Shown: positions 73-33,202 of the stretch, piece after piece
Layout of the letters: each line of letters starts with the position of its first letter
Numbering within the stretch: the stretch's first letter is position 1
Assembly: GCA_030612005.1 (NCBI GenBank)
Contig: JAUWOU010000002.1
Coordinates: 915-64,914 of the forward strand
Length of the DNA: 64,000 nucleotides
DNA from: Candidatus Thorarchaeota archaeon
Lineage (GTDB): Archaea; Asgardarchaeota; Thorarchaeia; Thorarchaeales; Thorarchaeaceae
Direction of reading: 5' to 3'
Notes under the pieces: model-generated
What the model was told of the DNA's origin: nothing
Databases searched by the model: none
The model's input: the letters and a program-made list of their open reading frames with translations, nothing else
Program-made: the position numbers and the translations under genes

Positions 73-1281
73 GTGGACGGACTTGGCATCTATGAAAACA
101 TTACAATTGAAACACCAGTGACTGTACTTCAACCTCTTGAGGTCAATCTGCAAGTCCCCTCTCTAACTTATAGTGATCAATCTACACTCAACCTTCAACT
201 GTATCCTCTATATGATTCCTCATTCACGGAGGGTCTAGACCTCACAATTACGCTCTATGTTTCAAATGACAACACTACTTGGGTGTCCATTGGTGAGTTC
301 ATCACTACTACTTCAGGCTGGCAAAGTATAGACTGGACCTGCACAGACTCAGGCATGCTCTTCTTCAAGGTCGAAGCAGTGAGTACTGAACTTTACACTG
401 AGAGTATCGGCTATGCGAACTCAGCGGCAATGAAGGAAATAACAGTATTGACAATAGAAGGTGTTGGAAACTTCATATATAGTGATCAAGGTGTACTTGT
501 AGCCCTGCTTTCAACTGATGATGGTGAACCCCTTTCTGACTACTCTGTATACCTAGAGATAATGGATGGGACATGGGTAAGCATAGGTTCAGGCCTTACA
601 AACGAGTCTGGTCATGTAAGTATCCTCTGGACACCCATGCTTTCAGCTGGTACTTATTCTATACAGATACGCATGTCACTTGCTGGTTCACAGTACTACC
701 TCACACCGGATAATGCAGTGGGAATAATTACAGTAGGTAAGGAATCCACTGTGGTTAGTATTGATTCTGCAACAGCAGCTCAAGGGTATGTACGTACAAG
801 AGTCACTGACGATGATGGTAATCCTATTGTCAGTATTCAAGTTCATTTCTATGTTGGTAGTAATCATGAATACCGAGGGTCTGGAATCACTGATAATGAT
901 GGATATACGCGTTTGAATATCACTTTGAACAATGATGAAACATTGGAAGCTGTAGTCAATGAGGATGACTTCTACTATGGTTCTATTGAACAGGTTACAG
1001 TTGCATTACCACTCGATCTTATGTTCATTATCTCTATATTGAGCGCTATCTGTCTCGTTGTAACTCCAATAGCTGTAGGTCGAAAAGTCATTCGTGGAAG
1101 AAGAGCATCAAGTCCACCATCTGTATCACCCGAGGTCAGTAAAGCATTGGAAGCGGAACGTGATAGTATTCCAGAAAGAGTTCGTGAGCATTCTGAAAAA
1201 CGGCTTGCTGAACTTGATGGTATAGGAATAGATAGCGGAGAAACCACCGAAACTCTATCAATTGATGATGACAGTACATGA
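73..1281 (+). CDS. Cell-surface protein with beta-sandwich (Ig/carboxypeptidase-regulatory-like) repeats and a C-terminal TM anchor followed by a charged cytoplasmic tail. The true start may lie upstream of the window.
   Basis: The protein is Thr/Ser/Val-rich with a repetitive beta-strand pattern (e.g. GTYSIQIRM, VRTRVTDDDGNPI). A hydrophobic helix (LMFIISILSAICLVVTPIAV) is followed by RKVIRGRR. No specific family was recognised. Confidence 0.45.
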   Translation: MDGLGIYENITIETPVTVLQPLEVNLQVPSLTYSDQSTLNLQLYPLYDSSFTEGLDLTITLYVSNDNTTWVSIGEFITTTSGWQSIDWTCTDSGMLFFKVEAVSTELYTESIGYANSAAMKEITVLTIEGVGNFIYSDQGVLVALLSTDDGEPLSDYSVYLEIMDGTWVSIGSGLTNESGHVSILWTPMLSAGTYSIQIRMSLAGSQYYLTPDNAVGIITVGKESTVVSIDSATAAQGYVRTRVTDDDGNPIVSIQVHFYVGSNHEYRGSGITDNDGYTRLNITLNNDETLEAVVNEDDFYYGSIEQVTVALPLDLMFIISILSAICLVVTPIAVGRKVIRGRRASSPPSVSPEVSKALEAERDSIPERVREHSEKRLAELDGIGIDSGETTETLSIDDDST

Positions 1282-2445: not shown

Positions 2446-2450
2446 GAGGA

Positions 2451-3389
2451 TTGGAGATTACAACATTCATAGACCTTGGAGCTGAAGACTATCTTCGTCT
2501 TATGAGAGATTCCTTGGACGAAGAAGTATTCAATAATCCAGATAATCAGGTCATCATCAATGATTTCGCCAACCAGAATCTTGTTCAGGCTGAGATTGAT
2601 TGTATGCTCAGGATCCAAGAGGACGAGAATGACAGTCTTGTGTGGGCGTTTTTTGGATTGTTCATGATGTTGCGTACAGATACATTTACAGCGGGACCTG
2701 CATTAGAGAAGGCAGTTGCTTCTGACCCTAAGAACATCTTTGCATTGAACCTCTTGGGAGACTTCCTGTGTAGAAACGGAGATTCTAAGAGAGGAGAGGG
2801 CTTCTACTGGCGCTCACTTCAATTGAAAAAGAAACAAGTCCATCCTTTCAAGATGCTCTACTATCAGTTCATGTTTCGAAAAGAGTATGAGAGAGCACTC
2901 AGGATGATGCAGGCAGTCCTTCTCATCGAACCAAATGATGGTAGAGCTTGGGCAAGTATTGAGTATACGATTCGAAAGATGGAATCCGATGCCTTTGCTG
3001 AAACAATCATGCTAACTCTGACCAAACATTTACCAAAACAGTATCGTGCTTGGTATATCTACGGTAGTCTTCTCCATAGGACTAAGAAGTACAATGAGGC
3101 TGAGAAAGTCGCACGTCAGTCGATTGAATTGAGAGATGACCATGCTGGATCTTGGTCACTGCTTGGAACTGTACTCACCGATCAAGGTAAGGTTGAGGAA
3201 GCAATCGAATGCTATCTCTGGGCTGTGAAGATCGAACCAATGAACATGGAGCTGTGGTTCCTCCTTAGTTTGCTCTTTCTCAAGAATGGAGATGAGAGTG
3301 AGTGGAAACGTGCATTAGATGTGGTTGTGTCTATAAATCCAGAAAAAGCAAGGGCATTACTGGAGAATCTTGAAGGGAAAGAGAAGTAG
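2451..3389 (+). CDS. TPR-repeat protein, adjacent paralog-like partner of the previous gene
   Basis: TPR-like helices (ALNLLGDFLCRNGDSKRGEGFYWRSLQL; AWYIYGSLLHRTKKYNEAEKVARQSIEL; SWSLLGTVLTDQGKVEEAIECYLWAVKIEP). Starts 6 nt after the previous stop. Confidence 0.6.
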   Translation: MEITTFIDLGAEDYLRLMRDSLDEEVFNNPDNQVIINDFANQNLVQAEIDCMLRIQEDENDSLVWAFFGLFMMLRTDTFTAGPALEKAVASDPKNIFALNLLGDFLCRNGDSKRGEGFYWRSLQLKKKQVHPFKMLYYQFMFRKEYERALRMMQAVLLIEPNDGRAWASIEYTIRKMESDAFAETIMLTLTKHLPKQYRAWYIYGSLLHRTKKYNEAEKVARQSIELRDDHAGSWSLLGTVLTDQGKVEEAIECYLWAVKIEPMNMELWFLLSLLFLKNGDESEWKRALDVVVSINPEKARALLENLEGKEK

Positions 3390-5057: not shown

Positions 5058-6506
5058 TTAAGAGCAGTGTATGAATTCTTTGTAACGACCTACTGCTTTC
5101 TCTAAACGCTTCTTTGTTACCTTAAGATTTTCAATCTGCATAGATGATTTGCCTAGATCATTGAGCAAATTATTCTCGTCTTCAGGTGTTTTGCAGTCTG
5201 AATCCAATAACATCAGAATCGATAATCGTAGACTCTCTAATAATTTCGGGGATAGTTCAGATGCTTTATCTTCATCTACCTCATTGCCATGAACAAAATC
5301 ATTCCGAATTTTATACCCCTCATAGACATTACTAAAAACTTCAGATCGATTACACCCTAAACATTCCAATAAAATAGCAACTCTTGTTGAGAGCGTAAAA
5401 CGTAGCTCAGGAGACTCTCTTTGAAGAATGGTTTCCAACCCGATTATGGAAAATAATATGGATTCAAGAGTAGGCCGTTGTGATGCTTCATTAAGCATTT
5501 TAAGTGCTCTCGCTACTCTCATGAGATTTTTTTCCTTTTTCATTCTAGTAATATACTCAGGATAGGAGGAGTTTCTAACAAGATCGTAAACCTGTAGATG
5601 TTCTTCTTTGAAATATGAGTAATCATAGACACCAAGTTTCAAAAGAAATCGTTCAACAGGTAATCGATTGTCTATAGATGAACTATATAGTACATGATCT
5701 GTTTCAGCAAACCAAGAGGAATATTTCCACTTTCCTCCTACTGCTAGTCTTAGAATCTCTATCTCTTTCTCTATCATACTGACTATTTTCTGATAATTAT
5801 CATAGAACTTGAAATGATATCCACGAGGAATTCCACTAGCCATAAATTCCAACACAGATGAAACTGCAATTACTGTTGATTCTTTCACCTCAGAAGGAAT
5901 ATTCGGCTGAGTGTTTGGTACACGAGGTACTCTAAAAGTCTTGAAGTCACTAGCCACAGGTAGTCTAATCGTTACTCCGTCTATTGAATATCGAATCTTA
6001 CTGACAAGACCGTTCAAAAATACAATACAACGCCAGTCTGTCGGTACTTGCATAATTTCATCATACGCAGTTTGTATTATTTCTTGTTTCTTTTCTGGAT
6101 GATTTATGAGTCGTTCTAGATAGTGATATGCACCAATTGAGCCATCATCCAGAAAGACACTTCCAACAATCTCTTTCAGTTCTTGAAAGAGAGGCTTAAC
6201 TTCTGTCAGTATCATTAACCTTGCATTTCGACTCAATGATTGTATTTGTTCAGACTGCCCTGGTTTGTATTGTACCGAAACTCCAAATTCGCCACCAGGT
6301 GTGATTGTAGGATGGTAGACCAAATATAGTTCAGTCCTTTTTTCTTCATCAGGAATCGATTTTATCATTGAAACAACTGATTCTGCAAATTCTTCAAGCA
6401 CAGATTTTGCTTCTTTGGGTGAATGTCTGTCTGATTTCATTACATTTCCCTCCATAATCAGAATATTCATTTTTACACTAATCAATGTTGATGAAAACAC
6501 TACCAC
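5058..6506 (-). CDS. Large protein with a C-terminal HEPN-like domain (Rx4H motif). The true start is probably an internal Met near 6440 (MKSDRHSPKEAK).
   Basis: C-terminal region ...LSTRVAILLECLG...YEGYKIRNDFVHGNEV... carries the R-x4-H signature of HEPN RNase domains in an alpha-helical context. The motif is encoded at about 5281-5320. The N-terminal 350 aa have no recognisable family. Confidence 0.55.
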   Translation of the reverse strand: MVVFSSTLISVKMNILIMEGNVMKSDRHSPKEAKSVLEEFAESVVSMIKSIPDEEKRTELYLVYHPTITPGGEFGVSVQYKPGQSEQIQSLSRNARLMILTEVKPLFQELKEIVGSVFLDDGSIGAYHYLERLINHPEKKQEIIQTAYDEIMQVPTDWRCIVFLNGLVSKIRYSIDGVTIRLPVASDFKTFRVPRVPNTQPNIPSEVKESTVIAVSSVLEFMASGIPRGYHFKFYDNYQKIVSMIEKEIEILRLAVGGKWKYSSWFAETDHVLYSSSIDNRLPVERFLLKLGVYDYSYFKEEHLQVYDLVRNSSYPEYITRMKKEKNLMRVARALKMLNEASQRPTLESILFSIIGLETILQRESPELRFTLSTRVAILLECLGCNRSEVFSNVYEGYKIRNDFVHGNEVDEDKASELSPKLLESLRLSILMLLDSDCKTPEDENNLLNDLGKSSMQIENLKVTKKRLEKAVGRYKEFIHCS

Positions 6507-6575: not shown

Positions 6576-7307
6576 TCACACCTTGAGTCCAATACCCTTG
6601 ACTGTAATCTCGTAGGGAATCACATCCATCGAGTGCATGGTCTCTCGCATTTTGACAATACGAAGTTTCCTACTTACAGTCATATCCTTTTCATCATAAC
6701 CTAATCTGATTACTCCATGTGACGCATAGCGTTCTACTCCTACTCCTGCCTGATCTAACTCTGAAGTAAGAATAGTTGTTAGGGAGAGACGAGTAAGGAC
6801 TGCGGTTAGACTGAGAACACCATTTCTTCGCTCGGTTCCTTCCATTCCATCAAGAAGTGCTGAAACTGGATCAATCACTAAACGCTGTGCATTTATCTCT
6901 TCTTTAGCTTCGGTTATTAATCGGGTCACTTCTTCAATACTGAACTTGCCTATTGGTACAGCAAGCTCAAGATTGGGTTTTAGTCCAAGTCGACCAGAAA
7001 ATGCATCGATGATTTTGAGTTGTTTAAGATCCATTAATCGTTGAAGATTCCATCCAAAGGCAGAGGCCTCTCTCATCACATCAGTCGGACTCTCATCTAG
7101 ACATACAAGAATTGCTGGTTCAGGGTCTTTTGGATTCTCAAGAATTCCAGCAATGAGAAAGTGTAATGATAGTATTGTCTTACCTGTTCCTGGAAGTCCT
7201 TCAACAAGAGTTGTGCGTCCTCTTGGAAATCCCCCTAATAACATCTCATTCAATTCTTTGATTCCGGTGCTACATCTATCCGTCTGTTTCAATGGTTTCA
7301 CCTTCAT
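6576..7307 (-). CDS. KaiC-like / RadA-like single-domain RecA-superfamily ATPase
   Basis: N-terminus GIKELNEMLLGGFPRGRTTLVEGLPGTGKTILSLHFL carries Walker A GLPGTGKT. Walker B-like ILVCLDE. About 240 aa, typical of archaeal KaiC-like proteins. Confidence 0.8.
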   Translation of the reverse strand: MKVKPLKQTDRCSTGIKELNEMLLGGFPRGRTTLVEGLPGTGKTILSLHFLIAGILENPKDPEPAILVCLDESPTDVMREASAFGWNLQRLMDLKQLKIIDAFSGRLGLKPNLELAVPIGKFSIEEVTRLITEAKEEINAQRLVIDPVSALLDGMEGTERRNGVLSLTAVLTRLSLTTILTSELDQAGVGVERYASHGVIRLGYDEKDMTVSRKLRIVKMRETMHSMDVIPYEITVKGIGLKV

Positions 7308-7893
7308 TTGTTATAGTTGGGTGTTTGAGTAAGTGCCACTTATGACTGAACTTTCCATTGTCTGATTCTCTTGTAACGTCAATGTAGTTGGTGGCAATAT
7401 ACTTCAGAGTAGCAAGACCTCGGTCAGAATGTACTCCCTTTGCTACAAATGCCAAAAATCGAACCTTTGAGAAGTCCTTAGCAATAATACGTAAACATCG
7501 ACTGATCTCTTCATCTGTAACCCCTTGGGCTACCATATCAGAAGGAGACCACCACAACCACCATGATGCTTTGATTGACTCAGCTAGCTTTCCTAGGCGA
7601 TTAAGAACTCCTTTTGTATCTGCAGGATTCTCTAAAAAGTTTTCACTATCATAATCACTCACACGTTGGCGAAGTGAATCTCGCGCAGTGGGTTCATGCC
7701 TAGTGGCGTCAATGAGAGTTGTGTTTTCTATATCAGTGTCTATTGGTTTGGAGTGGATAATGGCTTGAGAATCTTCCCCGATATCATCACGTATTTGCTT
7801 TAGCACCACATACTCTGCTTCAATTGGAAAACTGATGATACTTAGGCCACTGGTTCCAAACCATTTGTTCAATGGGATTGTAGTAATCTTCAA
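7276..7893 (-). CDS. Hypothetical protein (205 aa), translationally coupled between the HTH regulator and the KaiC-like ATPase
   Basis: Overlaps the upstream gene by 4 nt (7890-7893) and the downstream gene by 32 nt. No family recognised. Confidence 0.5.
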   Translation of the reverse strand: MKITTIPLNKWFGTSGLSIISFPIEAEYVVLKQIRDDIGEDSQAIIHSKPIDTDIENTTLIDATRHEPTARDSLRQRVSDYDSENFLENPADTKGVLNRLGKLAESIKASWWLWWSPSDMVAQGVTDEEISRCLRIIAKDFSKVRFLAFVAKGVHSDRGLATLKYIATNYIDVTRESDNGKFSHKWHLLKHPTITNEGETIETDG

Positions 7894-8435
7894 CTCCTCC
7901 TTCCTGTTTCTGTAGAAATAGTCGATTCGGAATCATCTATTGATGAAGATTGGCTATACATAGGAATACCATGGACCTGATCAAGAAGATGGGCAGTGAC
8001 AGAATCCCTTGCCATGTTTTGTTTACGAGAAATGGTAGTCTTCAATGTGTCAATATCTGTTGTCATTGTGATACAGTTTACCTGTAGCTCGTTCTGAATT
8101 TGATACACATAGACTGTTAGAGGTACATGTCCAACACCAGTCTTGAGAAAATCTATGAGGCCCTTGATGGTTGATTCCAATTCAGTCTGAAACTGGTATA
8201 GATTCGAATCAATGAGCACTTGAACTAGATATGGTTTCCCGAATATTGAAGGAATAACCTCGGGGATATATCCCAACACAAGACCATCCTCTTCCAACTT
8301 CCTGGTACGATACAGGGCTGTAGATTTGGGGATGTCCAATGCACGACCTAATGCAGCTGGACTACTTTTCACGGAGTTTCGCAATGAGAGAAGTGTAGCT
8401 GTCCAATCACCAATTGTCTTCTTCTGTTGACCCAA
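7890..8435 (-). CDS. Lrp/AsnC-like winged-HTH transcriptional regulator, first gene of the operon
   Basis: SPAALGRALDIPKSTALYRTRKLEEDGLVLGYIPEV matches the AsnC-type HTH pattern (LA..vGlS.st...Rv.rLee.GvI.gY). It is followed by a YLVQVLID region resembling a RAM-like domain. Confidence 0.6.
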   Translation of the reverse strand: MGQQKKTIGDWTATLLSLRNSVKSSPAALGRALDIPKSTALYRTRKLEEDGLVLGYIPEVIPSIFGKPYLVQVLIDSNLYQFQTELESTIKGLIDFLKTGVGHVPLTVYVYQIQNELQVNCITMTTDIDTLKTTISRKQNMARDSVTAHLLDQVHGIPMYSQSSSIDDSESTISTETGRRS

Positions 8436-8450
8436 TTTGAACCCTCAATA

Positions 8451-8518
8451 TTGTCCATTGTTCAATTCCATATAAACTCAGTTGTCCATTGTTCAACTCG
8501 AATTGTCCATTGTTCCAA
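8451..8518. promoter_or_regulatory. Three direct repeats TTGTCCATTGTTCAA (8451-8465, 8482-8496, 8504-8518; the third is TTGTCCATTGTTCCA) bracketing a TATAAA element (8471-8476), in the divergent intergenic region between the HTH-regulator operon (-) and the membrane-protein gene at 8575 (+)
   Basis: The repeats are exact 15-mers read directly from the sequence. The TATA is about 36-41 bp upstream of the ATG at 8435. This is a likely operator for the adjacent Lrp-like regulator. Confidence 0.5.
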
Positions 8519-8574
8519 AATGCTTGGGTTAATGGTTAAGTAAACTATCGGCAAGTTCTTTCTTGTGATATAAA

Positions 8575-8889
8575 ATGTCGTTTGATATCGTAAACTTCCT
8601 GTTAGGCCCAGCAGAAATCCTAACACAGGGAATGGTGGGTCTCATCTTGGGACTCGGAATGAATGCTATGCAGATCTGGTTGATGTACGAGATTGTTGTT
8701 CTTGTCCCTCCACGGTCTAAGAATCTGATCGATGCTATGGACATGGAACTCAGTCAGACTCAATACTTCAGTGGGATGAAGTATCGAATATACTCTGCAT
8801 TGTTTCAGGTCTTTTTACCACTAGTGCTGATCTGTGTATGCTACCTATCATTCTGCCTGTTCACTGACGTTGTTACATCCCTGTTCTAG
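8575..8889 (+). CDS. Small membrane protein with 2 TM helices
   Basis: GMVGLILGLGMNAMQIWLMYEIVVLV and VFLPLVLICVCYLSFCLF. Size and topology resemble CedA1/CedA2-type small proteins, but similarity cannot be tested here. Confidence 0.4.
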   Translation: MSFDIVNFLLGPAEILTQGMVGLILGLGMNAMQIWLMYEIVVLVPPRSKNLIDAMDMELSQTQYFSGMKYRIYSALFQVFLPLVLICVCYLSFCLFTDVVTSLF

Positions 8890-8903
8890 AACATCTGAGG
8901 TGA

Positions 8904-9584
8904 ATGTTAAGAATGCGCTTACGCATTGCCCACCACTCCCCTCTTTTTTTGAGGGTTATGTTTGCAATATCAATGGTCCTTCTTGTTAGCAGTATCACAC
9001 TCTGTTCAGCTCAGGAAGTAAGTGACGATATTCCATGCATAATTCTAGCCAAACCAGGGGAATTGTATGAGTTGGAGTTGTATCAGCTTGGAAATGACAC
9101 TCAGCATACTATCATTATCAGCTTTAACTTTGAGAATGAAAGTGCACACAGGTTAGAAGTGCAAGTTCCATACAATGGTAATTATGACTCAGCATCCGAA
9201 ATATATTGCGTAAATGACGACTCAGGGCTACTATTGTGCACGATAAAGTATGTAGGGATTGAAACTGTACTTCTTGGGGAAGAGCGAGCCAAGCTTGAGG
9301 TAGACAGTTCAGACTACCAAGCACGCTTAGTTGGTGTGCATTTGTCCGAGTCTTCGTCTTCAAGAGATATAGCGATTCCAAAGTCCTTTGGGATCATTCT
9401 TGCTCTGTGCAGTCTATTGCCATTCTTCCTACTGGCCCCTGATGCAATAACAGACTTGCAGGCACAACTGGAAGTAGAAGCAGCATCGAAAGGAGTGTAT
9501 GGACGGATTCTTGCTCTGCTACTCCCACTTCTAACAATCGGTTTGACTTTTTGGCTTTTGGAGAGTTTGAAAATATTCGGGTGA
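8904..9584 (+). CDS. Secreted protein with a signal peptide and a C-terminal hydrophobic region
   Basis: N-terminus MLRMRLRIAHHSPLFLRVMFAISMVLLVSSITLCSAQE. C-terminus ILALCSLLPFFLLAP...ILALLLPLLTIGLTFWLL. Confidence 0.45.
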   Translation: MLRMRLRIAHHSPLFLRVMFAISMVLLVSSITLCSAQEVSDDIPCIILAKPGELYELELYQLGNDTQHTIIISFNFENESAHRLEVQVPYNGNYDSASEIYCVNDDSGLLLCTIKYVGIETVLLGEERAKLEVDSSDYQARLVGVHLSESSSSRDIAIPKSFGIILALCSLLPFFLLAPDAITDLQAQLEVEAASKGVYGRILALLLPLLTIGLTFWLLESLKIFG

Positions 9585-10414
9585 TGAACATGACAGCAAC
9601 TACACACAAGGGATTGAAACAACGTATAGCGCATTATTATGCGAAAAAAGACGCAGAAGCGGATAAAGGATCAGAAGCGGATAAAGAACGGAAAAGGGAA
9701 CTGAAGAGGAACTGGGATCAGTCAGGAGGTTCCTTGAAAGGTTGGATGAACAAATTCACTGGAGGTCTTGATCTTCCATTCAAATCTATAGCCATCTTTG
9801 CAGGTAGTTGGATGCTTTTGGAGATTGGTTGGCCTCTCTTGATAATATTTGGAGTGGCAACCGCTGGAAACGTGTGGAGTATTGCAACCGTAATTCCATG
9901 TCTATTCATTGCAGTATATGTCAATATCATGGTTAGTGGAATGAACATGATTCGCAGCATAATCACACAATTGGGGGATCGGCGGGACAATCTGGTGAAG
10001 GCATTATTTCGAGGATACTTTTGGAGCCTCTTGTCAATTGGGCTCATTCTGATAGTCCATGAATATTTCCATACCACTATGCCAATGCTGTTCTTTATAC
10101 CCATCTTTTATCTCATACCACTCCAAGTTCTTGGAACCACAGTCCCGTTTCCTCTATTACTTGGAATAAGTGGATTGTACATGGATCTCGCCGTTACAAT
10201 CATTGTGTATGCCATTGGGATAACTGGCAGTGCCATTGGTGGCATTGAGATTCTGCGTACCCTGCTGGACAATTCTCGACAACGTGGTACATATGGTGCG
10301 ATTTTCGGTGTGTTACTTCTAGCTGTGTTCCCAGTGGTGAACATCTACTTCTCACTGGTATTTCTAACGACTACTATGGATCTTTTTGGGAGGTGTGTGT
10401 CCTTTGGCGCTTGA
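9551..10414 (+). CDS. Polytopic membrane protein with about 6-7 TM helices
   Basis: Multiple hydrophobic helices throughout. Overlaps the upstream gene by 34 nt and the downstream ATPase gene by 29 nt, indicating translational coupling. Size and topology are comparable to CedA. Confidence 0.5.
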   Translation: MAFGEFENIRVMNMTATTHKGLKQRIAHYYAKKDAEADKGSEADKERKRELKRNWDQSGGSLKGWMNKFTGGLDLPFKSIAIFAGSWMLLEIGWPLLIIFGVATAGNVWSIATVIPCLFIAVYVNIMVSGMNMIRSIITQLGDRRDNLVKALFRGYFWSLLSIGLILIVHEYFHTTMPMLFFIPIFYLIPLQVLGTTVPFPLLLGISGLYMDLAVTIIVYAIGITGSAIGGIEILRTLLDNSRQRGTYGAIFGVLLLAVFPVVNIYFSLVFLTTTMDLFGRCVSFGA

Positions 10415-13187
10415 TCCGATTGCCCTGCTGAGCTTGATAGTTCCTCTCTTAGTCGTCTTTGGATTCAGTATATTGGCCATGACTATGATCCATCTTGGAT
10501 TATCCGCAAGTGGTAATCGTTTCGCTATGGAGATTACCTGCTTCTTGGGTATGGCAGTGTTCTATGGAACTGAGATAGTCCTAGGCATAACTTCGCTAGA
10601 ACTGACTCTATCGATGCTACTACTGATTACTCCGGTTATGGTTATCGAGGCTTTCAGGCCTTCAAACGAACGTAAGGGCAACAAGCCTCAACTAGTTAAG
10701 ATTGAAGGTGGAACAGACAGGCTTGCTAAAGAAGTCCTATGCTTCGCACATGGTGATGGATATGTAGGCCTTGCAGCAATCCGGATCAAAGGCATTCCGT
10801 TACAGAATGAACGACGGAACAATAAGCATGAGGAGAATGAGGATTTCAAATGGCTATACCCATTTTGGGAAGACAGCAAGAAATCCAATGGCGTATTCAC
10901 TCTGGAAGCAAAGTTTGAGAAGGGGCTTGCTGACCTCCGTTTCTTCACGATCAGTCACGACAAGGACTTCAAACAAGCAGTGGAAAAGACAGACAGATCA
11001 AGACAGATTGCAGAAACTTGGCTCACACGTATTGAGTACGACTATGAGGTTGTATCTTCTGATGAACTATGGAATGTATATCGTGAACTGGACTATGGCT
11101 CATTGCGCGCGACTTCTATGCCGGATGTGGTACAATCAGAGGATGATGGGTATCTTAGTGGACTCTCTATTGAACATCTACCAGATAGTCTATCGAGTAA
11201 CTGGGGCGAAGTGCTTCAGCAGTTCCTAAGAAGCCGTCTTTCTGGACATGCTCTTCTCTCCTTTTCCTCAGGACCTGTTCCCAAGTTGCATGAACGGGCA
11301 GGTGAGAGCAGAGAGGACTCAAAAGTACAAACGAGAACTCCTTTCCGTGTTGAAGACCACAAACTTCGAAAAACGTACAAACAGATGGCAGAGGTTGCAG
11401 CATGTGAGGAAACAGGCGCATTTCGGGTAGGGACAGCAGTCTTGCTCCGTGGTGGAACAGCTGAAGATGTTGAGTATGCTGTGAAGCAAACAGAAGCTGT
11501 TATTCAGGGAGTATGGGGCGGAGTGAAAACTACTAACCTATCAGGTGGTCGTTTACGACATAATTGGACCAAATTCCTACTGCGTAATTACATTGGCAAA
11601 TCTACTTCTGTAAGTGGCGCACGACTGACCGGATTATTACAGATCTACGAAGCCATGCCTGGTGTTCCAAATCATATAGTACCACCTGCTTTTGCGATTC
11701 CTATTCGTCATACTTCAATTGATTCGGTCACTTTCGGTCAAATCCTTGAAAGAGGTAAGACGACTGCTCAAGAGTATAGTATTCCCATTAATTCATTCTG
11801 TCTTCATACGGGAATTTATGGCAACCCTGGAAGCGGTAAGACCAATACAGGATTGGAACTCACCCATCAGGTTTACCAACATGGAATTCCATTTCTTGCT
11901 ATCGTTCCAGCCAAAACTGAGTGGAGAATGCTATCAGCATACATTCCAGAGCTACGGATCTTTACTGCTGGTGATGATTCTACTTCACCATTCCGATACA
12001 ATTTCTTCGATGTTCCACCGGGAGTTCCTATTCAGACACACATCAACAACATTACACTATGTTTCATAGCAAATTGGCCAACAGAGGGAATTCTCACTGA
12101 ACATATCACGAAGATATTCAGACGAACCTATACCAATGCAGGCTGGAACTTGCTCACGAACGAGCGAGGCAGTCCCATTCTACTGAATGACTTGTACTCC
12201 GCAATGGAAGAGGTCGCAAACGAACTAAGGTATGGGGCTCGCTTGAAACAAGACTTTGTGGGAGCCCTTACTGCAAGGTTTGAGTCCCTTTTGGATGATC
12301 CTGTATTGTCTGTCATGCTAAACACTAGACATGGGATAACAATACCCGAATTGTTGAGTAATCCGACAATTCTAGAGCTTCGTCATCTTCCTGATACTCA
12401 AAGAGCACTAATAACGAGCCTGATCATGGTGGCAGTGACGGAGTATCTTGAAGCTCAGGAGCCTTCTATCAATCAAGAGTTACGTCATTTACTAGTCTTG
12501 GAGGAAGCTCACCACGTTCTGAAACGTGTTGGGAATGGATACGGCATAAATGAGGGTCATTCATCCCAGCAGCAGGCAATCAACACCATCGTTCAACTCC
12601 TTCGTGAGGCACGCGGTCTCGGCTTGGGTGTGGTACTGATCGACCAGTTACCGGGAAGTCTGGCTGATGCTGCAGTAAAGCTTCCAGGTATCACGATGAT
12701 CCACTCACTCAAGGATGCACGAGAGAGACTTCTGGTGGGGGGTCAGGCAAACTTGAATGATGCGCAACTCCTGCACATAGGCTCTCTGAAATGTGGAGAA
12801 GTAGTCATCCATCAAGCCTTTGAAGGCCCAGCGGTACTTGCTCAAGTGTTTCAATTCCGTAGAAAACACGCAGCCGAACCTTGGACTGACAGACGAGTAG
12901 CAGACATGATGACGCCTTTCTTCATTGCAAACCCACATCTCCGAAGTCAGAACCTTCCCATGATACGACGGTGGGAAGCTGATCCCGTAGTACTTGACAA
13001 TCTCAAATTTCTGACAGTATCGCTAGATTTCAGAAAGGCATACATAGAATGTCTTGTCCAAGGGCAGGAATATGCAGACGCATACGTCTTGGGGTTAGTA
13101 CAGGAACTCGTTCCCAACTTCACAGAAGCCGCCCACTACTGCAATTGTCTAGTTGACCATCTTGGGGAGGTTGAGAGCAGTGGATGA
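10386..13187 (+). CDS. Membrane-anchored HerA/FtsK/VirB4-superfamily P-loop ATPase (CedB/TedB-like architecture)
   Basis: N-terminal ~90 aa contain 3-4 TM helices. Walker A GIYGNPGSGKTN is encoded at about 11825-11860. Walker B of HerA type (hhhhEEAH) is LLVLEEAHHVL, encoded at about 12490-12520. Confidence 0.7.
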   Translation: MGGVCPLALDPIALLSLIVPLLVVFGFSILAMTMIHLGLSASGNRFAMEITCFLGMAVFYGTEIVLGITSLELTLSMLLLITPVMVIEAFRPSNERKGNKPQLVKIEGGTDRLAKEVLCFAHGDGYVGLAAIRIKGIPLQNERRNNKHEENEDFKWLYPFWEDSKKSNGVFTLEAKFEKGLADLRFFTISHDKDFKQAVEKTDRSRQIAETWLTRIEYDYEVVSSDELWNVYRELDYGSLRATSMPDVVQSEDDGYLSGLSIEHLPDSLSSNWGEVLQQFLRSRLSGHALLSFSSGPVPKLHERAGESREDSKVQTRTPFRVEDHKLRKTYKQMAEVAACEETGAFRVGTAVLLRGGTAEDVEYAVKQTEAVIQGVWGGVKTTNLSGGRLRHNWTKFLLRNYIGKSTSVSGARLTGLLQIYEAMPGVPNHIVPPAFAIPIRHTSIDSVTFGQILERGKTTAQEYSIPINSFCLHTGIYGNPGSGKTNTGLELTHQVYQHGIPFLAIVPAKTEWRMLSAYIPELRIFTAGDDSTSPFRYNFFDVPPGVPIQTHINNITLCFIANWPTEGILTEHITKIFRRTYTNAGWNLLTNERGSPILLNDLYSAMEEVANELRYGARLKQDFVGALTARFESLLDDPVLSVMLNTRHGITIPELLSNPTILELRHLPDTQRALITSLIMVAVTEYLEAQEPSINQELRHLLVLEEAHHVLKRVGNGYGINEGHSSQQQAINTIVQLLREARGLGLGVVLIDQLPGSLADAAVKLPGITMIHSLKDARERLLVGGQANLNDAQLLHIGSLKCGEVVIHQAFEGPAVLAQVFQFRRKHAAEPWTDRRVADMMTPFFIANPHLRSQNLPMIRRWEADPVVLDNLKFLTVSLDFRKAYIECLVQGQEYADAYVLGLVQELVPNFTEAAHYCNCLVDHLGEVESSG

Positions 13188-15321
13188 AGGTTCTGACTTC
13201 GCCTCTTCTCCATTGGTTTCTTATTGGTCTGAAACACGGTTAGATATCATTCTTTGGAAGAATGAGAGTGAGTCATATCGCGGTTTCTTAAAGTACAGCA
13301 ATCCCACGGTTTCAGCGGAACTTGAGAATGGAACAACCGTCGTTCCTGATACGAAAGAAGACCTATGCGTAACTATTGAGTATGAAGTCATATTGAAAGA
13401 AACAGGGATAAGTGAACAAAGACCCCTGAAAAGACCAGTCAAGATACTCCTTAACCCAATTGTCACTCAACGTTACAGGTATTTTCCAAACCTTGATGGT
13501 AGAGGGGAATTTATCTTTCCGCCATCAACCAATAGATTCTACTCAAGACTTTTTGTTCTGGATCTTGAAAAATACTATGATGACGACGGTAGTATAGGTG
13601 CTCGTTGTTCCCTTCATCAGTGTCCAAATCAGAAGGATAGACTATGGCTCACAATATCAAACTCAGAAACCGGAGAGATCTACGAAGCCTTCCTCATCCA
13701 CCACTATGAAGGTAACATCTTTTTGATGCCCAATGATGCCCAGTTAGATTTTGCCCTTGCAAAGAGGTATGCAGATGGTGTTCGCAAATCGGACCTGTTC
13801 GATGTTGAAGGGCTCCTGAAAGGGCCACCGCCATCAATGGCCCAGCTAGCGATGTTGGTGCAGGATGTCAATGTACCGAACCTTATGATACATGATACCC
13901 TTGAGAGAACAATCTCACAACTAGTACCTCAGGTGTTTCCTGAAAACATAAGACAAAGCCTTTGCGTTTTCCTTGGCCTCCTTGCTCTTGATAAGATTGA
14001 ACAACGCAAGGACCCTGATGATCTTTCGGTCGAGTTCGCCCCTTGGAGAATGGTCAGTTCTCTCTACAATAGTCACTTACTTTACACTATTCTAAAAATC
14101 GAATCACCTTCATACGTTCGACTCATGCATCTAGCTGCACGAAGGGAGATGCAAGGAATCGGTAGAACTGTTAGGGAAGATATTGGTAAGAGTGAGTGGC
14201 TCATGTTCTGGCATCTACTTCACGATGGAGTGAAGAATTTCCGTGATGAGATACCTATTCTTCTGGATATCGTAGAAAGATCGAATCAGTTGGGTACGAT
14301 TACAGGCAAAATCATACCCTCCAAGTCTACGGGGCAACGTTCACGTAAGGCTTGGGTGACACGGTTAGTATGTAACTCTTCAGTTACTAGCCCCTCACTG
14401 ATTTGTACTCCCAATCTAAAGGCTCTTGGACTTGATCAGATTCTCTATCTGGGGTCCGCCTATTGCTGGCCTCACAGGCACATGTCATATATCACAAGTT
14501 TAGGAAGATGGCAGGTTAATAATCCACCACATCTACAACACATGATCCTCCCCTCGAAGGCTTCCGAACGAATCAGACGTCTGATTCCGTCAGTGTTGAA
14601 TGTTACTTGGAGTAGTAGGACTTTCAATCCTGACCTGTATACTAATCAGTGGAATGTGCGACCAGATGATATCTTGAGTTCCTTAGGTCGGACTAGACCA
14701 CTAACCACTCTGAGAAAGAAGTACTATACTCCTTCCCTCTGTGATGTTGATTATATTACTCCAACTGAAGCCTTGGTCATGGATATCATTACACGCTCAT
14801 TTCACATGATGTATTTCAAAGAACGACCATATTTGTTCGAGAAAATGTTCGGGATTGAGAAGCAACTTTTCATTCGTACTGCGCGTTCGTTGGCCAAGAG
14901 AGGGGTTCTGGAGCCACAATATATCCTAATCCCACTACTTCCTACACTGGCTACCATTGCCTGTGGAGAACCAAAGAATATCGTTTCTCTTGCTGATGCA
15001 TTTCTGTCGGGATCTCCTACATGCACAGCCTACATCTGTAACGAGGGAAACGATGCAGTCTTTCTCTCTCGAATACCACCCTCAGACCTAGGAGAACTTG
15101 CTAGGTCGCTCCCACAAGCAGGACAAGAACATGGGACTACCATTCGCTGTTTTAGACCTCACACCCTTAGAAGTTACAATCATTCGCTATACCAGAGATT
15201 ACTACGAGAGGATGGCACATGGGATGATGATGTGCGTGGATTCCTCTCTCAGGCACGAGGGAAGAGAGTTGAGATTGCAAATGTAATTGATAGCATGAAA
15301 ATTAAGAGTTGTATAACATGA
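13153..15321 (+). CDS. Large hypothetical protein (722 aa), translationally coupled to the ATPase
   Basis: Start overlaps the ATPase stop by 35 nt. No recognisable motifs by eye. Confidence 0.5.
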   Translation: MTILGRLRAVDEGSDFASSPLVSYWSETRLDIILWKNESESYRGFLKYSNPTVSAELENGTTVVPDTKEDLCVTIEYEVILKETGISEQRPLKRPVKILLNPIVTQRYRYFPNLDGRGEFIFPPSTNRFYSRLFVLDLEKYYDDDGSIGARCSLHQCPNQKDRLWLTISNSETGEIYEAFLIHHYEGNIFLMPNDAQLDFALAKRYADGVRKSDLFDVEGLLKGPPPSMAQLAMLVQDVNVPNLMIHDTLERTISQLVPQVFPENIRQSLCVFLGLLALDKIEQRKDPDDLSVEFAPWRMVSSLYNSHLLYTILKIESPSYVRLMHLAARREMQGIGRTVREDIGKSEWLMFWHLLHDGVKNFRDEIPILLDIVERSNQLGTITGKIIPSKSTGQRSRKAWVTRLVCNSSVTSPSLICTPNLKALGLDQILYLGSAYCWPHRHMSYITSLGRWQVNNPPHLQHMILPSKASERIRRLIPSVLNVTWSSRTFNPDLYTNQWNVRPDDILSSLGRTRPLTTLRKKYYTPSLCDVDYITPTEALVMDIITRSFHMMYFKERPYLFEKMFGIEKQLFIRTARSLAKRGVLEPQYILIPLLPTLATIACGEPKNIVSLADAFLSGSPTCTAYICNEGNDAVFLSRIPPSDLGELARSLPQAGQEHGTTIRCFRPHTLRSYNHSLYQRLLREDGTWDDDVRGFLSQARGKRVEIANVIDSMKIKSCIT

Positions 15322-16733
15322 GAGATATCGAAGAACTTTCAGATGATGAATCTCACATTGAAGATAGAGGAACAAAGGTCAAAGACTTCGAGAATCGTTC
15401 TCTGACTACTGAGGAACGTGATAAGATCATTCGCGAGTACAATGCTGAACATTCCATACATCGAATAATTCCTGATGCGGTCGATACACTAGACCAATCT
15501 GATAGGATTGTAACCGATTCAGAAAATCTTAATGATACTGATGAAGATACCGACTCTAGTTCTGAAAAAAAGAAGATAGATTCTGAAGAGGTTTGCAGAT
15601 TGTACATTGAGGATGGGCTGAGTCTAAAAGAAGTAGGAAAAATTTTCGGCTTCAAAACTGGTGCACCAATAAAACGAATATTAGAGGCTGAGGGGCTAGA
15701 ATTGCGATCAGCTGGAGCTCAAAAAACTGATATTAACTCTGAAGAGGTTTGCAGACTATATCTTGAGGAAGAACTGAGTCTGGATAAGATAGGAGAACAT
15801 TTTGGTCTTAAATCCCGTAGCCCTGTCAAACGAATCCTAGAAACTGCGGGAGTGGAAATACGCCCAGTCGGTTTTCAGAAGATAGATATTGACCATGATG
15901 AGGTCTATAGATTGTACTTTGAGGAGCGCAAGGATCTCAAAGAGATTGCTGACCACTTCGATTGCAAATCCACAGACCCCATCCATCGTATTTTTGATGA
16001 GCAGGGTTGGAAGACAAGGTATCAGGAAACCTATGAGAAGGATTTCGAACCTGAAGAGGTCTTTAGATTATACAATGAAGATGGATTGTCTTTGAGAAAG
16101 ATTGGGGAACATTTTGGGGTTTCAATTGGTCCTATCCGTAGAATCTTCGAAGAACATAACATGGAGTATGGTCAGGAGATTCAGATTGATCCAGAAGTTA
16201 TCCATAAGCTGTACTTTGATGAAGGATTGTCAAAAGAAGAAGTATGTGAGCGTCTTGGTGTTTCAAAGAGACCAATTAATCGTATAATTGAAGAGCAAGA
16301 TCTATTGAGGAACAGGAGTGGGTTGATTGACATTGATGATTTTTCTAGATTATACTATGTAGAAGAATTGACAATGACAGAAATATCCAAACATTTTGAA
16401 GTTTCACAAAATACTCTCAAGCGATTCCTCAAAAAGCACAAGTTGGAAGAAAGAACTACTAGAACTGTAAGAGAGATACGCGATGAGATGTTTGGTAAAG
16501 ATTGTGTATCCTGTCGAAGACCAAAAGAGGTTATTCATAAAAAGGATGGAGAGCCGCATGAGCGTTATAGAACTTGGACTAAGAAGGCATTACGAACAGT
16601 GAATCCAAACGAATGGGTGGCATTATGTGAACCCTGTCACAGGTTAACCCATTCTCTTATGAAATCATTTAGTTGTGAATGGGATGACATTGAAAAAATA
16701 CTAACAGAACTCGCAAAAGAATGGTTATCCTAG
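15309..16733 (+). CDS. Protein with six tandem HTH repeats (sigma-70 region-4-like) and a C-terminal HNH endonuclease motif
   Basis: Repeats of about 50 aa such as EEVCRLYIEDGLSLKEVGKIFGFKTGAPIKRILEAEGLELR. C-terminal CVSCRRPKEVIHKKDGEPHERYRTWTKKALRTVNPNEWVALCEPCHRLTH has HNH-like C-x2-C...H...N...C-x2-C-H spacing. Overlaps the upstream gene by 13 nt. Confidence 0.65.
   Translation: MYNMRDIEELSDDESHIEDRGTKVKDFENRSLTTEERDKIIREYNAEHSIHRIIPDAVDTLDQSDRIVTDSENLNDTDEDTDSSSEKKKIDSEEVCRLYIEDGLSLKEVGKIFGFKTGAPIKRILEAEGLELRSAGAQKTDINSEEVCRLYLEEELSLDKIGEHFGLKSRSPVKRILETAGVEIRPVGFQKIDIDHDEVYRLYFEERKDLKEIADHFDCKSTDPIHRIFDEQGWKTRYQETYEKDFEPEEVFRLYNEDGLSLRKIGEHFGVSIGPIRRIFEEHNMEYGQEIQIDPEVIHKLYFDEGLSKEEVCERLGVSKRPINRIIEEQDLLRNRSGLIDIDDFSRLYYVEELTMTEISKHFEVSQNTLKRFLKKHKLEERTTRTVREIRDEMFGKDCVSCRRPKEVIHKKDGEPHERYRTWTKKALRTVNPNEWVALCEPCHRLTHSLMKSFSCEWDDIEKILTELAKEWLS
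15585..16440 (+). repeat. In-frame tandem repeat array of about 150-156 bp units within the CDS, encoding the HTH repeats
   Basis: GAAGAGGTTTGCAGAYTRTA recurs at 15585 and 15741 at nucleotide level. The protein repeats are more diverged further 3'. Confidence 0.6.
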
Positions 16734-31192: not shown

Positions 31193-33202
31193 TTATTTAA
31201 ACCTACTAGGAAGATGCCGTTCAAAAAGTCCCCACTTGATGGCTTTATTCACACTTCTCATCTTCCTTTTATGATCCGGAGGTGCAATCTTGACCCAAAT
31301 AGCCGCATCTCTGTTCCTGCTAGTAGTACATGACCAAAGTAGTGATATTTTTCCAGTTTCAGGATACAAAACCACTCTATCCCAGCGTCTTGTAATACTG
31401 ATAGCGAAATGCTCGACAATCTTCTTTTCACTTTCAAGGAGTCTACTTTTATTCTCCTTTATCATCTTGTGAAATCGTTGAGCTTCAGTTGCAATCTCTG
31501 AATCAGAATCCATCATCAATTTATCTAATTCTCCTTTTGTTATCACGATTTGTTTAGTTGGTTCTTCTTTGATAGAATAAGGATTCTTGAAATCTGTCGT
31601 TTTTCTTTTACCATGTTCAATGATAAATTGTTGTTCAGAATTCCCAATCCGCGATTCCAAACCGTATTTTTCCATTTTCCCACTATACAAGGTAACGGCA
31701 CGACTCCATTTAAACCTCCAACCACCTCCTTTGAACGAGAAGCTCCCATCTTCTGCAATCAACTGGCTTAGGTACTCTTGTTTGACTCTATTAGTTCCAT
31801 CTTTGATTACCTTGGGGAGGTCTGAATTGAGGATGCTTTTGTCACCAATAGGCATTCCCCATACCGCTAACATTCGACCGAATACAGCAGGTAATCCAAT
31901 AACATGGCCATCTTTTCTTTTAGATTCCCAATATTGAATTTCACCAAGCTGGCTAATTATTTCCTTGAATCTTCTAAGACGGACTTGGTCTTTCTCGTAA
32001 TAATGAGCCGACATTTTTGGTCTAAGATGTCCATCACTCATCATCGCACCAATTAATTGAGCTCTGATTATCTCTATATCTAATGGAAACTCTGGGTTCT
32101 CAATATTGCCTCTCCCACGTTTTGCACCAAAGCCCGAAATGTGTTTGATAGATTGAACATCTTGAATGTCCTTTCCGACCACATCTAGAATAAATCCAAG
32201 TGTTTCTCCTGTTAGATAATTACTTGATTTTCTGAGTTCATTTCTATCAGATCCTTGAGTGACGTTTCTAGTTTCTTCCGCAAATTGATTCAGTAATCTT
32301 CCAAAATCTCGACGACTAATACCTCCAAGATGAAGAAGAGCATTTTCAACAATTCTATTCTTTGCTTCAGAAGATTCGAAATGAAAATGATCGACAGCGT
32401 GTATATCTGTCCAACTATTAATACCTGGCACGCATCTATGGACATAAAGTGTATCATTTACTATTCCAATTCTCAGGCTATTAGTATCTAATTTGTTTTT
32501 GACCTCTCCCTGATTTCGCGTAATGTAATCAGATACACCCCTATACCATTGTGTTCCAAGAGTGGAGTATGGTCTCAAATTCGTATAATAGAATCGGATA
32601 TTTTGTGGCACTTGTTCGTCTAAACCAATTATCATTGATGCTACTTGTTGAAAATCCAATAGTTCGAATCTGAATTTCTTGAATGAATGATATACAAGAG
32701 AACAATCTATACAATGTTCTTGTGCCTCACATGGCACTTCCCGTTCACAATCAATCCTATCAGCCTCAAGTTTCTCAAGTATCCTTAGACCAAAAGGCCT
32801 TACTTCTCTGTAAGACCAATCATTAAACGATGAGTCAGGAATCCCATAATGTACCGCTAACTCCTTTCTTTGTACTCCCTCTGGAATTTTCCCCGTCTTC
32901 TTATCATCCTTCATTCTGAAATATCCAGCAATCTCTCGCAATTCCTTCTTTGCATCCATCCTTTCCATGAAAGAAGGATTTCTTTGTAAAACCTCTTGGA
33001 ATTCATCATAGGTTTCAATTCTCGAATTGAGGTTTCTCTCTCGTGCATTAATTTTTCCTATATTCTCTCCTTCCAGTGAAGGCTTAATCTTAGATAATTT
33101 GTCGTGATATTCTCTGATTATTTCATCTCTTTCTTCAGGAGTTAATCGTCTACCCTTTTTCTCTGAATCTTCGGATAAATCGTATTCTCGAGTTTCTCTC
33201 AA
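31193..33202 (-). CDS. Free-standing LAGLIDADG-type homing-endonuclease-like protein with two LAGLIDADG-like motifs and a long N-terminal extension
   Basis: AQLIGAMMSDGHL and YLSQLIAEDGSF resemble paired LAGLIDADG motifs. No intein splice-junction context. The N-terminal 55 aa are paralogous to the N-terminus of the 15309..16733 protein. Confidence 0.55.
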   Translation of the reverse strand: MRETREYDLSEDSEKKGRRLTPEERDEIIREYHDKLSKIKPSLEGENIGKINARERNLNSRIETYDEFQEVLQRNPSFMERMDAKKELREIAGYFRMKDDKKTGKIPEGVQRKELAVHYGIPDSSFNDWSYREVRPFGLRILEKLEADRIDCEREVPCEAQEHCIDCSLVYHSFKKFRFELLDFQQVASMIIGLDEQVPQNIRFYYTNLRPYSTLGTQWYRGVSDYITRNQGEVKNKLDTNSLRIGIVNDTLYVHRCVPGINSWTDIHAVDHFHFESSEAKNRIVENALLHLGGISRRDFGRLLNQFAEETRNVTQGSDRNELRKSSNYLTGETLGFILDVVGKDIQDVQSIKHISGFGAKRGRGNIENPEFPLDIEIIRAQLIGAMMSDGHLRPKMSAHYYEKDQVRLRRFKEIISQLGEIQYWESKRKDGHVIGLPAVFGRMLAVWGMPIGDKSILNSDLPKVIKDGTNRVKQEYLSQLIAEDGSFSFKGGGWRFKWSRAVTLYSGKMEKYGLESRIGNSEQQFIIEHGKRKTTDFKNPYSIKEEPTKQIVITKGELDKLMMDSDSEIATEAQRFHKMIKENKSRLLESEKKIVEHFAISITRRWDRVVLYPETGKISLLWSCTTSRNRDAAIWVKIAPPDHKRKMRSVNKAIKWGLFERHLPSRFK

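Follow-up and report, generated by a model that had tools for sequence, protein, structure and literature searches.

A Thorarchaeota gene cluster around a membrane-anchored HerA/VirB4-type ATPase, with a downstream slot for variable tagged proteins

The gene cluster and its junctions

A stretch of 64,000 nucleotides from a Candidatus Thorarchaeota archaeon (GenBank assembly GCA_030612005.1, contig JAUWOU010000002.1, positions 915 to 64,914 of the forward strand; referred to below as the window) carries a cluster of six plus-strand genes, here called g1 to g6, that encode three membrane proteins, a membrane-anchored ATPase, a soluble accessory protein and a protein with helix-turn-helix (HTH) repeats. 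The first four genes recur in the same order in related genomes, and the gene that follows them mostly encodes a protein that begins with one and the same short sequence, the tag, whatever the rest of the protein may be. Judged from the sequences, the cluster would be a membrane system driven by a motor of the FtsK-HerA superfamily, either of the Ced/type IV secretion system (T4SS) type or of the HerA-effector type. All six open reading frames (ORFs) that a preliminary description of the window had proposed exist at the positions given there:

g1, 8575..8889, plus strand: 104 amino acids (aa), two hydrophobic helices; better conserved than any other protein of the cluster
g2, 8904..9584, plus strand: 226 aa; a signal or anchor at the N-terminus is followed by ~115 aa of extracytoplasmic domain and by two transmembrane (TM) segments near the C-terminus
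g3, 9584..10414, plus strand: polytopic protein with ~5-6 TM segments, 276 aa from the ATG at 9584
g4, 10404..13187, plus strand: membrane-anchored ATPase with a HerA/VirB4-type P-loop
g5, 13180..15321, plus strand: soluble, Thorarchaeota-specific protein of 713-722 aa, encoded between the ATPase gene and the tag-gene slot
g6, 15318..16733, plus strand: acidic N-terminus with LTTEERDKIIREY, ~7 repeats resembling sigma-70 region 4 and HTH_23, and a C-terminal HNH-like zinc module
Tag of g6, 15318..15491, plus strand: MRDIEELSDDE...RSLTTEERDKIIREYNAEHS

The gene overlaps quoted earlier (9551/9584, 10386/10414, 13153/13187 and 15309/15321) are those of the longest possible ORFs. Database orthologues and the context of the start codons point to starts at 9584 (g3, ATG), 10404 (g4, TTG), 13180 (g5, GTG) and 15318 (g6, ATG), with overlaps of 1 nucleotide (nt) between the g2 stop and the g3 start, 11 nt between the g3 stop at 10414 and the g4 start, 8 nt between the g4 stop at 13187 and the g5 start, and 4 nt (ATGA) between the g5 stop at 15321 and the g6 start. 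Since overlaps remain even with the shorter starts, the genes from g2 to g6 are tightly coupled, and only the sizes of the serial overlaps had to be revised. A gap of 14 nt separates g1 from g2, whose ATG is preceded by GAGGTGA. The region is chromosomal: the gene next after g6 encodes uS2 of the archaeal/eukaryotic type, and aconitase X, UbiD, SufS and RPA are further neighbours in the window. Scans for sigma-70 promoters and terminators were uninformative, as expected for an archaeon.

The membrane-anchored ATPase

The protein encoded by g4 consists of three TM helices (residues 1-91), an alpha/beta N-terminal domain (~100-430), the P-loop domain (~445-830) and a helical C-terminal domain (835-928). 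The N-terminal TM helices, as well as the Walker A (GNPGSGKT, residue 479) and Walker B (LLVLEEAH, residue 702) motifs, had been predicted correctly; the helices number three by hydropathy and are helical also in an AlphaFold2 model, and both motifs are invariant in the family. The catalytic motifs are intact, and the motor is predicted to be active. Outside the TM region the model is of good quality (mean pLDDT 78, and 85-92 in the N-terminal domain), and a Foldseek search with it returned nine full-length TrwK/VirB4 chains on top (E 4e-17 to 3e-14, ~870-970 columns), with HerA next (7e-14). The C-terminal ATPase has the VirB4-type fold, and the model suggests that the N-terminal domain may be VirB4-like as well. 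From this ranking we conclude that the motor is of the HerA/VirB4/DptH type and clearly not of the FtsK/EccC type; it thus falls on the HerA side of the division that the preliminary description had drawn against FtsK/SpoIIIE and secretion ATPases.

Searches by sequence lead to HerA. The profile of the g4 family retrieved HerA-clade chains only from the Protein Data Bank (PDB), namely HerA itself (4d2i, 9.4e-17), followed by the SIR2-HerA and DUF4297-HerA complexes, and neither a VirB4 nor an FtsK chain appeared up to an E value of 10. Pfam DUF87 reaches 17.6 bits on g4 (cutoff 23.2) and PF01935 is recorded for several orthologues; with its DUF87/HerA central domain and a Walker B motif of the form hhhhEEAH, g4 belongs to the HerA clade. 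Among the NCBIfam models, ser_rich_anae_1 scores 78 bits (cutoff 650), the second-best model is that of CedD (E 4e-10), and no CedB model was found at E<=0.1. CedB and CedD have been assigned to the HerA clade, with TM helices and an N-terminal domain like that of VirB4 (PMC11868833), and g4 shows the same architecture of TM helices, N-terminal domain and C-terminal HerA-clade ATPase.

This affinity to HerA, SIR2-HerA and DUF4297-HerA would also fit a membrane-tethered HerA-nuclease system of conflict or defence, an explanation that we consider rather unlikely. In such a system the g4 hexamer would be both sensor and motor (compare HerA-NurA, SIR2-HerA, DUF4297-HerA and DptH), the tag would dock exchangeable nucleases, and g1-g3 would anchor the complex where foreign DNA enters. 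PADLOC points in this direction with a match of mad8 to g4 at 39 bits and several weak HerA models (at most 31 bits); these scores, however, lie far below family level and no system model is satisfied, so that a known PADLOC defence system was rejected. The operon contains no SIR2 or DUF4297 gene, NurA is missing as well, and PADLOC is silent on g1, g2, g3 and g5. Unlike the ATPases of HerA-NurA, SIR2-HerA/Nezha and DUF4297-HerA, and unlike DptH of DndFGH, g4 is membrane-anchored and encoded in one operon with three dedicated membrane proteins; and whereas those complexes work with NurA, SIR2 or DUF4297, the partners here are tagged HTH/HNH-like or LAGLIDADG-like proteins around a highly conserved core.

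Conservation of the core and its membrane proteins

At least 12 independent loci of Thorarchaeota (the window, L001, L002/L009, L005-7, L008, L088-L090, L093-L096 and L098) have the genes g1-g2-g3-g4 in constant order and overlapping, a recurrence far beyond chance. All named homologues of the ATPase, g5 and g3 are from 'Candidatus Thorarchaeota', full-length relatives of g4 are confined to Thorarchaeota, and scans of IMG/VR with g3 and with the tag yielded no relatives. The identities by locus are 89, 86, 78 and 75% for g1 versus 68, 55, 46 and 47% for g4, with 68-52% for g3 and 64-44% for g2. The g1-g4 cluster looks like a Thorarchaeota-specific membrane machine that has been inherited vertically. 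Such strong conservation beside housekeeping genes and conserved neighbours is unlike patchy defence islands, and an identity of 75-89%, as in g1, is to be expected of a structural subunit in a fixed complex but not of an arms-race component.

The three membrane proteins had been described as a small 2-TM protein, a secreted protein and a polytopic protein with 6-7 TM segments. The hydropathy profile indeed gives two hydrophobic segments in g1, joined by a loop of ~28 aa. In g2 it gives hydrophobic segments at residues 10-39, 155-185 and 197-225; the N-terminal signal or anchor is thus real, but because of the two C-terminal TM segments the protein is anchored rather than freely secreted. The protein g3 is polytopic, with a TM count nearer to 5-6, all located between residues 80 and 276; its family comprises 83 homologue clusters, every one at least 48% identical and the named ones from Thorarchaeota, and RDNLVKALFRGYFWSLLS is among its conserved motifs. 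Searches of g1-g3 against Pfam, NCBIfam, PADLOC and PHROGs gave no match. By analogy, their topologies are compatible with CedA1/VirB2 for g1, an anchored extracytoplasmic subunit for g2 and CedA/VirB6 for g3.

What lies 3' of g4 differs between loci. The window has g5 and g6, and L005 has g5 and a protein of 1162 aa; a g6-like protein alone directly follows the ATPase gene in L001 (30% identity to g6) and L098; proteins of 754-785 aa are found in L008 and L095 and proteins of 1087-1367 aa in L002, L088, L089 and L094, while several small proteins are encoded in L088 and L090.

The accessory protein g5 and the slot for tagged genes

The protein g5 had been regarded as a 722-aa orphan, a view that has to be abandoned, as it has 8 homologue clusters at 32-100% identity (the named ones Thorarchaeota); L090 carries a 26%-identical copy. 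It is missing from most operon loci, and in L093 an ORF of 105 aa (5387-5704), located between the ATPase gene and a gene for a tagged LAGLIDADG-like protein, keeps only the last ~58 residues of g5 (62% identity) and is a decayed g5. On account of its absence from most loci and of this 58-aa remnant we consider g5 an optional accessory. An attempt to unite it with the other large post-ATPase proteins in one fast-evolving 'partner' family had to be given up, as hmmsearch --max and hhalign gave nothing.

Almost every protein encoded right after g4 (or g5) starts with the tag though the bodies are unrelated. The tag is acidic, has the consensus LTxEERDxIIREY and contains one or two copies of [LIF][TS]xEERDxII(R/K)E(Y/F). 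It stands at the start of the first or second gene after the ATPase gene or g5 in 11 clear cases and 1 weak case among the 12 loci with downstream sequence. With few exceptions among the loci, the stop of g4 and the next start overlap by 8 or 14 nt, irrespective of the body; this uniformity makes the position look like a conserved junction, or slot, and not like the result of independent insertions. The bodies are of the HTH plus HNH-like kind, LAGLIDADG-like, or 1100-1400 aa long without a family, and many have no nuclease signature (the 1135-1367 aa family and proteins of 290 aa and 155 aa). Their sequences indicate that the bodies are interchangeable and that most of the recognisable ones are predicted DNA-binding or nuclease-like proteins. 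We regard the architecture of tag and slot as a new feature. The linkage of the ATPase to a 722-aa protein and an HNH gene that had been noted earlier is hence to be recast, with g5 as optional and g6 as one occupant of the slot.

The HTH repeats that had been assigned to g6 are well supported (Pfam Sigma70_r4 1e-19 and many other HTH families; NCBIfam Cbp1-type HTH 2e-16), and it is through one HTH only that g6 matches mad1 of PADLOC. The assignment as an HNH nuclease is more tentative. A C-terminal motif CxxC..IH(K/R)KDG..H..CxxCH..H (IHKKDG in the window) is invariant in three homologues, g6 and the proteins of L001 and L098, with N or D at the position of the HNH Asn. PHROG HNH matches are weak but consistent (E 5e-4 to 0.1), and the g6 C-terminus alone matches 5 PHROG 'HNH endonuclease' families (E 5e-4 to 0.015). 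Pfam HNH appears at E 0.28 in two of the three homologues and does not match g6 itself, and a search of the C-terminus against PDB sequences gave no relevant match.

The slot bears on the defence explanation from both sides. Arms-race loci typically show what is seen here, a gene after the ATPase that is hypervariable between related genomes and often nuclease-like, and a g5 that comes, goes and decays; on the other hand, such site-specific modules as HTH arrays and LAGLIDADG are unusual in defence effectors.

Tagged proteins outside the slot

A further tagged protein is encoded elsewhere in the window:

w669, 31193..33202, minus strand: 669 aa, between sufS (29919-31187) and the RPA gene (33534-35717)

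It starts with MRETREYD...RRLTPEERDEIIREY, the same N-terminal tag as in g6, and its C-terminal module of ~410 aa contains two LAGLIDADG-like motifs (LIGAMMSDGHL and LSQLIAEDGSF). A strict regular expression for the tag, run on all six frames of the window and of seven Thorarchaeota loci (the remaining tagged proteins have looser forms of it, recognised by eye), matched only the tagged proteins after the ATPase and w669. A paralogue of slot proteins, w669 shares in its body 27-29% identity with those of L008, L095 and L093 and with a free-standing protein in L091, and the partner protein of the Hermodarchaeota locus L010 joins this family through L008_754 and L095_785 (27-28%). The motifs RARLxGxxxSDGHL and YLxQLIxEDGSF are conserved. 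Because neither w669 nor the slot proteins of L008, L093 and L095 have a Pfam or PDB match, the LAGLIDADG assignment of w669 is made on motifs only.

A tag profile searched against 1.84 billion representatives found 22 proteins of 57-1231 aa; nearly all carry the tag at residues 1-50, and those with a name come from Thorarchaeota without exception. An alignment of broader scope (A6) was too diverse for pattern scanning, and a narrower one (A7) found only 3 metagenome loci. The 22 proteins include double-LAGLIDADG proteins, among them P0116 and P0135 with canonical motifs, an HTH array fused to a w669-type module, and large proteins without a family. The fused protein, P0128 (742 aa, from a JGI metagenome), combines the tag, a g6-like HTH array and a w669-type LAGLIDADG-like module, from which we conclude that modules are shuffled within one family. 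The profile also matches an HTH-repeat protein, P0122, so that helix 1 of an HTH unit may be the origin of the tag.

Proteins with a constant N-terminus and highly variable bodies, encoded both in the slot and at other places (w669, L091), have the architecture of polymorphic effector families (compare PMC3482391), and one could imagine protein export with the logic of a type VII secretion system (T7SS) or of polymorphic toxins, in which the tag is a secretion signal and g1-g4 export tagged effectors, nucleases included, possibly into cells contacted by an adhesin. The T7SS with its LXG/WXG effectors offers an analogy, as it likewise has a TM-anchored ATPase of the FtsK-HerA superfamily with small and polytopic membrane partners, and constant N-terminal modules on variable C-terminal bodies encoded downstream and elsewhere; in addition, HNH domains are common toxin modules and a giant surface protein adjoins the cluster (see below). 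We nevertheless hold this explanation to be very improbable. HerA, VirB4 and DptH are clearly nearer relatives of the motor than EccC/EssC/FtsK, the members known for protein secretion, no small immunity-like gene follows g6 (where uS2 is encoded) or its homologue in L001, and neither HTH arrays nor LAGLIDADG modules are known toxin types. Moreover, the resemblance of the tag to HTH helix 1 suggests a relic of DNA binding or protein docking rather than a signal peptide.

Alternatively, there might be no functional link at all: g5, g6 and the other slot genes could be selfish genes of the homing-endonuclease type that land 3' of a conserved operon, while g1-g4 do unrelated work such as the assembly of a surface structure or membrane remodelling. 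Tagged proteins do include canonical LAGLIDADG and HNH-like types, tagged genes occur amid unrelated housekeeping genes (w669) or without the operon (L091), slot content varies among close relatives and g5 is decaying in L093. Free-standing homing endonucleases of the HNH and LAGLIDADG types have in common with these proteins the HTH array and HNH-like zinc module seen in g6, the LAGLIDADG motifs of its tagged relatives and the varying genome positions; they differ from them in that the tagged proteins have a common N-terminal tag and a fixed, coupled position after one ATPase gene, that many lack a nuclease motif, and that the window proteins stay below the Pfam thresholds for HNH and LAGLIDADG. 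The regularity of the tag gene after the ATPase, which is always co-directional and nearly always overlapping, the many slot proteins without a nuclease signature, and the large partner directly downstream of the ATPase relatives in Hermodarchaeota and, more loosely, Nitrososphaerota all make such an independent origin improbable.

Neighbouring genes and promoter repeats

Upstream of g1 lies a divergent trio of genes that would supply a regulator, preceded in several genomes by a very large surface protein:

u1, 7890..8435, minus strand: winged-HTH protein of 181 aa, divergent from g1; candidate operon regulator
u2, 7276..7893, minus strand: 205 aa, middle gene of the trio
u3, 6576..7307, minus strand: single-domain KaiC-like ATPase of the RecA superfamily, 243 aa, last gene of the trio
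Giant surface protein, C-terminus, 73..1281, plus strand: ~400 aa with Ig-like domains of the Big_1/MG type, truncated at the window start
Three direct copies of TTGTCCATTGTTCAA, 8451..8520, strand not assigned: divergent u1/g1 promoter region; putative operator

Residues 13-53 of u1 give weak matches to HTH_24, HTH_20 and MarR, and the protein is 46-76% identical in L001, L005 and L093. No Pfam or NCBIfam model matches u2, which is 48-81% identical in L001 and L005; a gene for 121-206 aa occupies the same position in 8 further loci (~200 aa except in L089 and L095). The KaiC domain PF06745 scores 191 bits on u3 (cutoff 26.6), archaeal KaiC-domain models of NCBIfam score 96-142 bits, which is under their cutoffs, and ArlH was rejected (35 versus 215 bits). 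The protein is 70-90% identical in L001, L005 and L007, and a KaiC-like (PF06745) gene stands beside the operon in L088-L090, L094-L096 and L098. Altogether, the trio accompanies the operon, on either strand, in 11 of 13 loci; it is absent from L002, and L008 begins at g1.

The product of 73..1281 matches Pfam Big_1 (E 9e-9) and shares 38-49% identity with the C-terminal parts of giant proteins (1145 to >3400 aa) in L088, L089, L090, L094 and L096, where the giants are encoded directly upstream of the trio; in several loci the trio is predicted to be co-transcribed after the giant Ig-domain surface protein. This linkage is left unexplained by a defence function. The copies of TTGTCCATTGTTCAA, which are unique in the window, are spaced 31 and 21 nt apart; with up to 2 mismatches the window contains 4 matches, 3 of them in the u1/g1 intergenic region (0.4 expected). 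The orthologous upstream regions of L002 and L008 have different repeats with a CATTG core.

At L095 2054-4797 and L094 5828-7457, a HEPN_AbiV gene, two HNH_3 genes and a pair of M78-peptidase/HTH and DUF4411 genes lie within a few kb of the operon. These are neighbours of the defence or toxin-antitoxin type and speak in favour of the defence explanation.

A possible DNA translocon

We tentatively place first the possibility that g1-g6 encode a Ced/T4SS-like DNA translocon with DNA-selecting or DNA-processing partners that are recruited through the tag. It takes this rank because of the type and architecture of the motor, its dedicated polytopic and extracytoplasmic partners and its DNA-related clients, and because the cluster is strongly conserved, chromosomal and linked to an adhesin. 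The g4 hexamer would dock through its TM helices on a membrane complex of g1-g3 and pump DNA across the membrane, on the model put forward for CedB/CedD and CedA and for VirB4 and VirB6. The tag would dock a sequence-specific DNA-binding or nicking protein on the motor, and the docked protein would select or process the DNA, in function comparable to a relaxase or coupling factor. Cell contact could be provided by the giant surface protein, and the winged-HTH/KaiC-like trio might control expression through the TTGTCCATTGTTCAA repeats.

The closest known systems in this respect are the Ced system of Sulfolobales (CedA, CedA1, CedA2, CedB and CedD; PMC9905601, PMC11868833), Ted, and the minimal T4SS core (VirB2/VirB6/VirB4, in R388 TrwL/TrwI/TrwK). 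Ced and the cluster have in common small 2-TM proteins, a polytopic protein of ~6 TM segments and a TM-anchored HerA-clade ATPase, and both are chromosomal and apparently domesticated. The cluster differs in that the Ced models do not recognise it and homology to CedA/CedA1 was not detected, that it forms a single overlapping operon and that it belongs to Asgard archaea, not Thermoproteota; g2, the slot for nuclease-like tag genes, the KaiC-like trio and the giant surface protein have not been described for Ced. The likeness to Ced/Ted that had been proposed at the outset is thus borne out in the CedB/CedD-type layout of g4 and the topologies of its partners, but not in family membership, as no Ced or VirB model matches g1-g3 and Ced membership of g4 was rejected on the NCBIfam score.

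Several observations weigh against a translocon. Variable 3' genes are a hallmark of conflict systems, and the length of the g1 loop is unlike that of VirB2-type pilins. The CedD model (NF053655) reaches 39.1 bits on g4 versus a cutoff of 600, and only over residues 722-808, and none of the Pfam and NCBIfam models of VirB4/TrbE/CagE matches g4 at E<=0.1. In hhalign comparisons, an insensitive test, the g1 and g3 families gave no signal with VirB2, VirB3, VirB5, VirB6 and VirB8 of R388; g1 was negative with TrwL and TrwM, and the g3 profile (75 sequences) aligned to TrwI/VirB6 with P=0.12, a value to be read with caution as the published links needed HHpred and deep alignments. Finally, no g1-g3 homologue was seen in the Hermodarchaeota locus L010, whose protein matches g4 residues 427-929, nor is there a matching gene set beside the ATPase in Nitrososphaerota, so that the g1-g3 trio is not universal for the ATPase clade; and the bacterial relatives of the ATPase close multi-gene operons with VWA/DO-GTPase2 proteins (L004) or, in L003, for which a domain annotation is available, with dynamin-like GTPases and not T4SS genes.

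In a more far-reaching version, the cluster would be a hitherto undescribed, chromosomally fixed DNA-exchange apparatus, made up of a VirB4/HerA-type motor, three lineage-specific membrane subunits and interchangeable, site-specific DNA-binding or nicking proteins addressed by the tag, which would serve a relaxase-independent, conjugation-like transfer between Asgard cells with the help of giant adhesins and a KaiC-like regulator; we judge this version unlikely. Our literature search found no paper that connects Thorarchaeota to VirB4, Ced or conjugative transfer. Of the known prokaryotes, Asgard archaea are most closely related to eukaryotes, and in Thorarchaeota a lineage-wide membrane machine of the VirB4/HerA type offers a concrete candidate for the exchange of DNA or for conflict between cells. 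How the archaeal T4SS-like systems Ced and Ted operate without relaxases is an open point (PMC9905601), for which tag and slot could offer an explanation; should the cluster serve defence instead, it would represent a new, membrane-anchored type of HerA-nuclease system.

Relatives of the ATPase outside Thorarchaeota

Nitrososphaerota have TM-anchored relatives of g4 at 27-35% identity, and around their genes we found no hallmarks of integrative and conjugative elements or T4SS. Outside Asgard archaea and Nitrososphaerota, the closest relatives in sequence are soluble bacterial proteins of ~1000-1200 aa that are related to g4 in its ATPase domain (26-34% identity). Their operons (L003 5127-13525, L004 851-12913, L015-L087), in which a protein of ~200 aa is usually encoded 3' of the ATPase gene, look like an uncharacterised bacterial system.

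A large soluble protein is encoded 3' of the ATPase in the Nitrososphaerota loci L013 (8603-15137), L019 (8636-15462), L050 (6870-11945) and L014 (8960-14111). These partner proteins have a common C-terminal region of 330-500 aa, and that of L014 is the only protein to reach the Pfam threshold of LAGLIDADG_3. In L013, L019 and L050 a conserved protein of ~200-215 aa comes next after the large partner, and L013 encodes an Ig-like surface protein of 1086 aa nearby. In the window itself, two TPR proteins (1318-3389, plus strand) follow the gene for the surface protein, and an ORF of 1180 aa (35880-39422, plus strand) adjoins the RPA gene.

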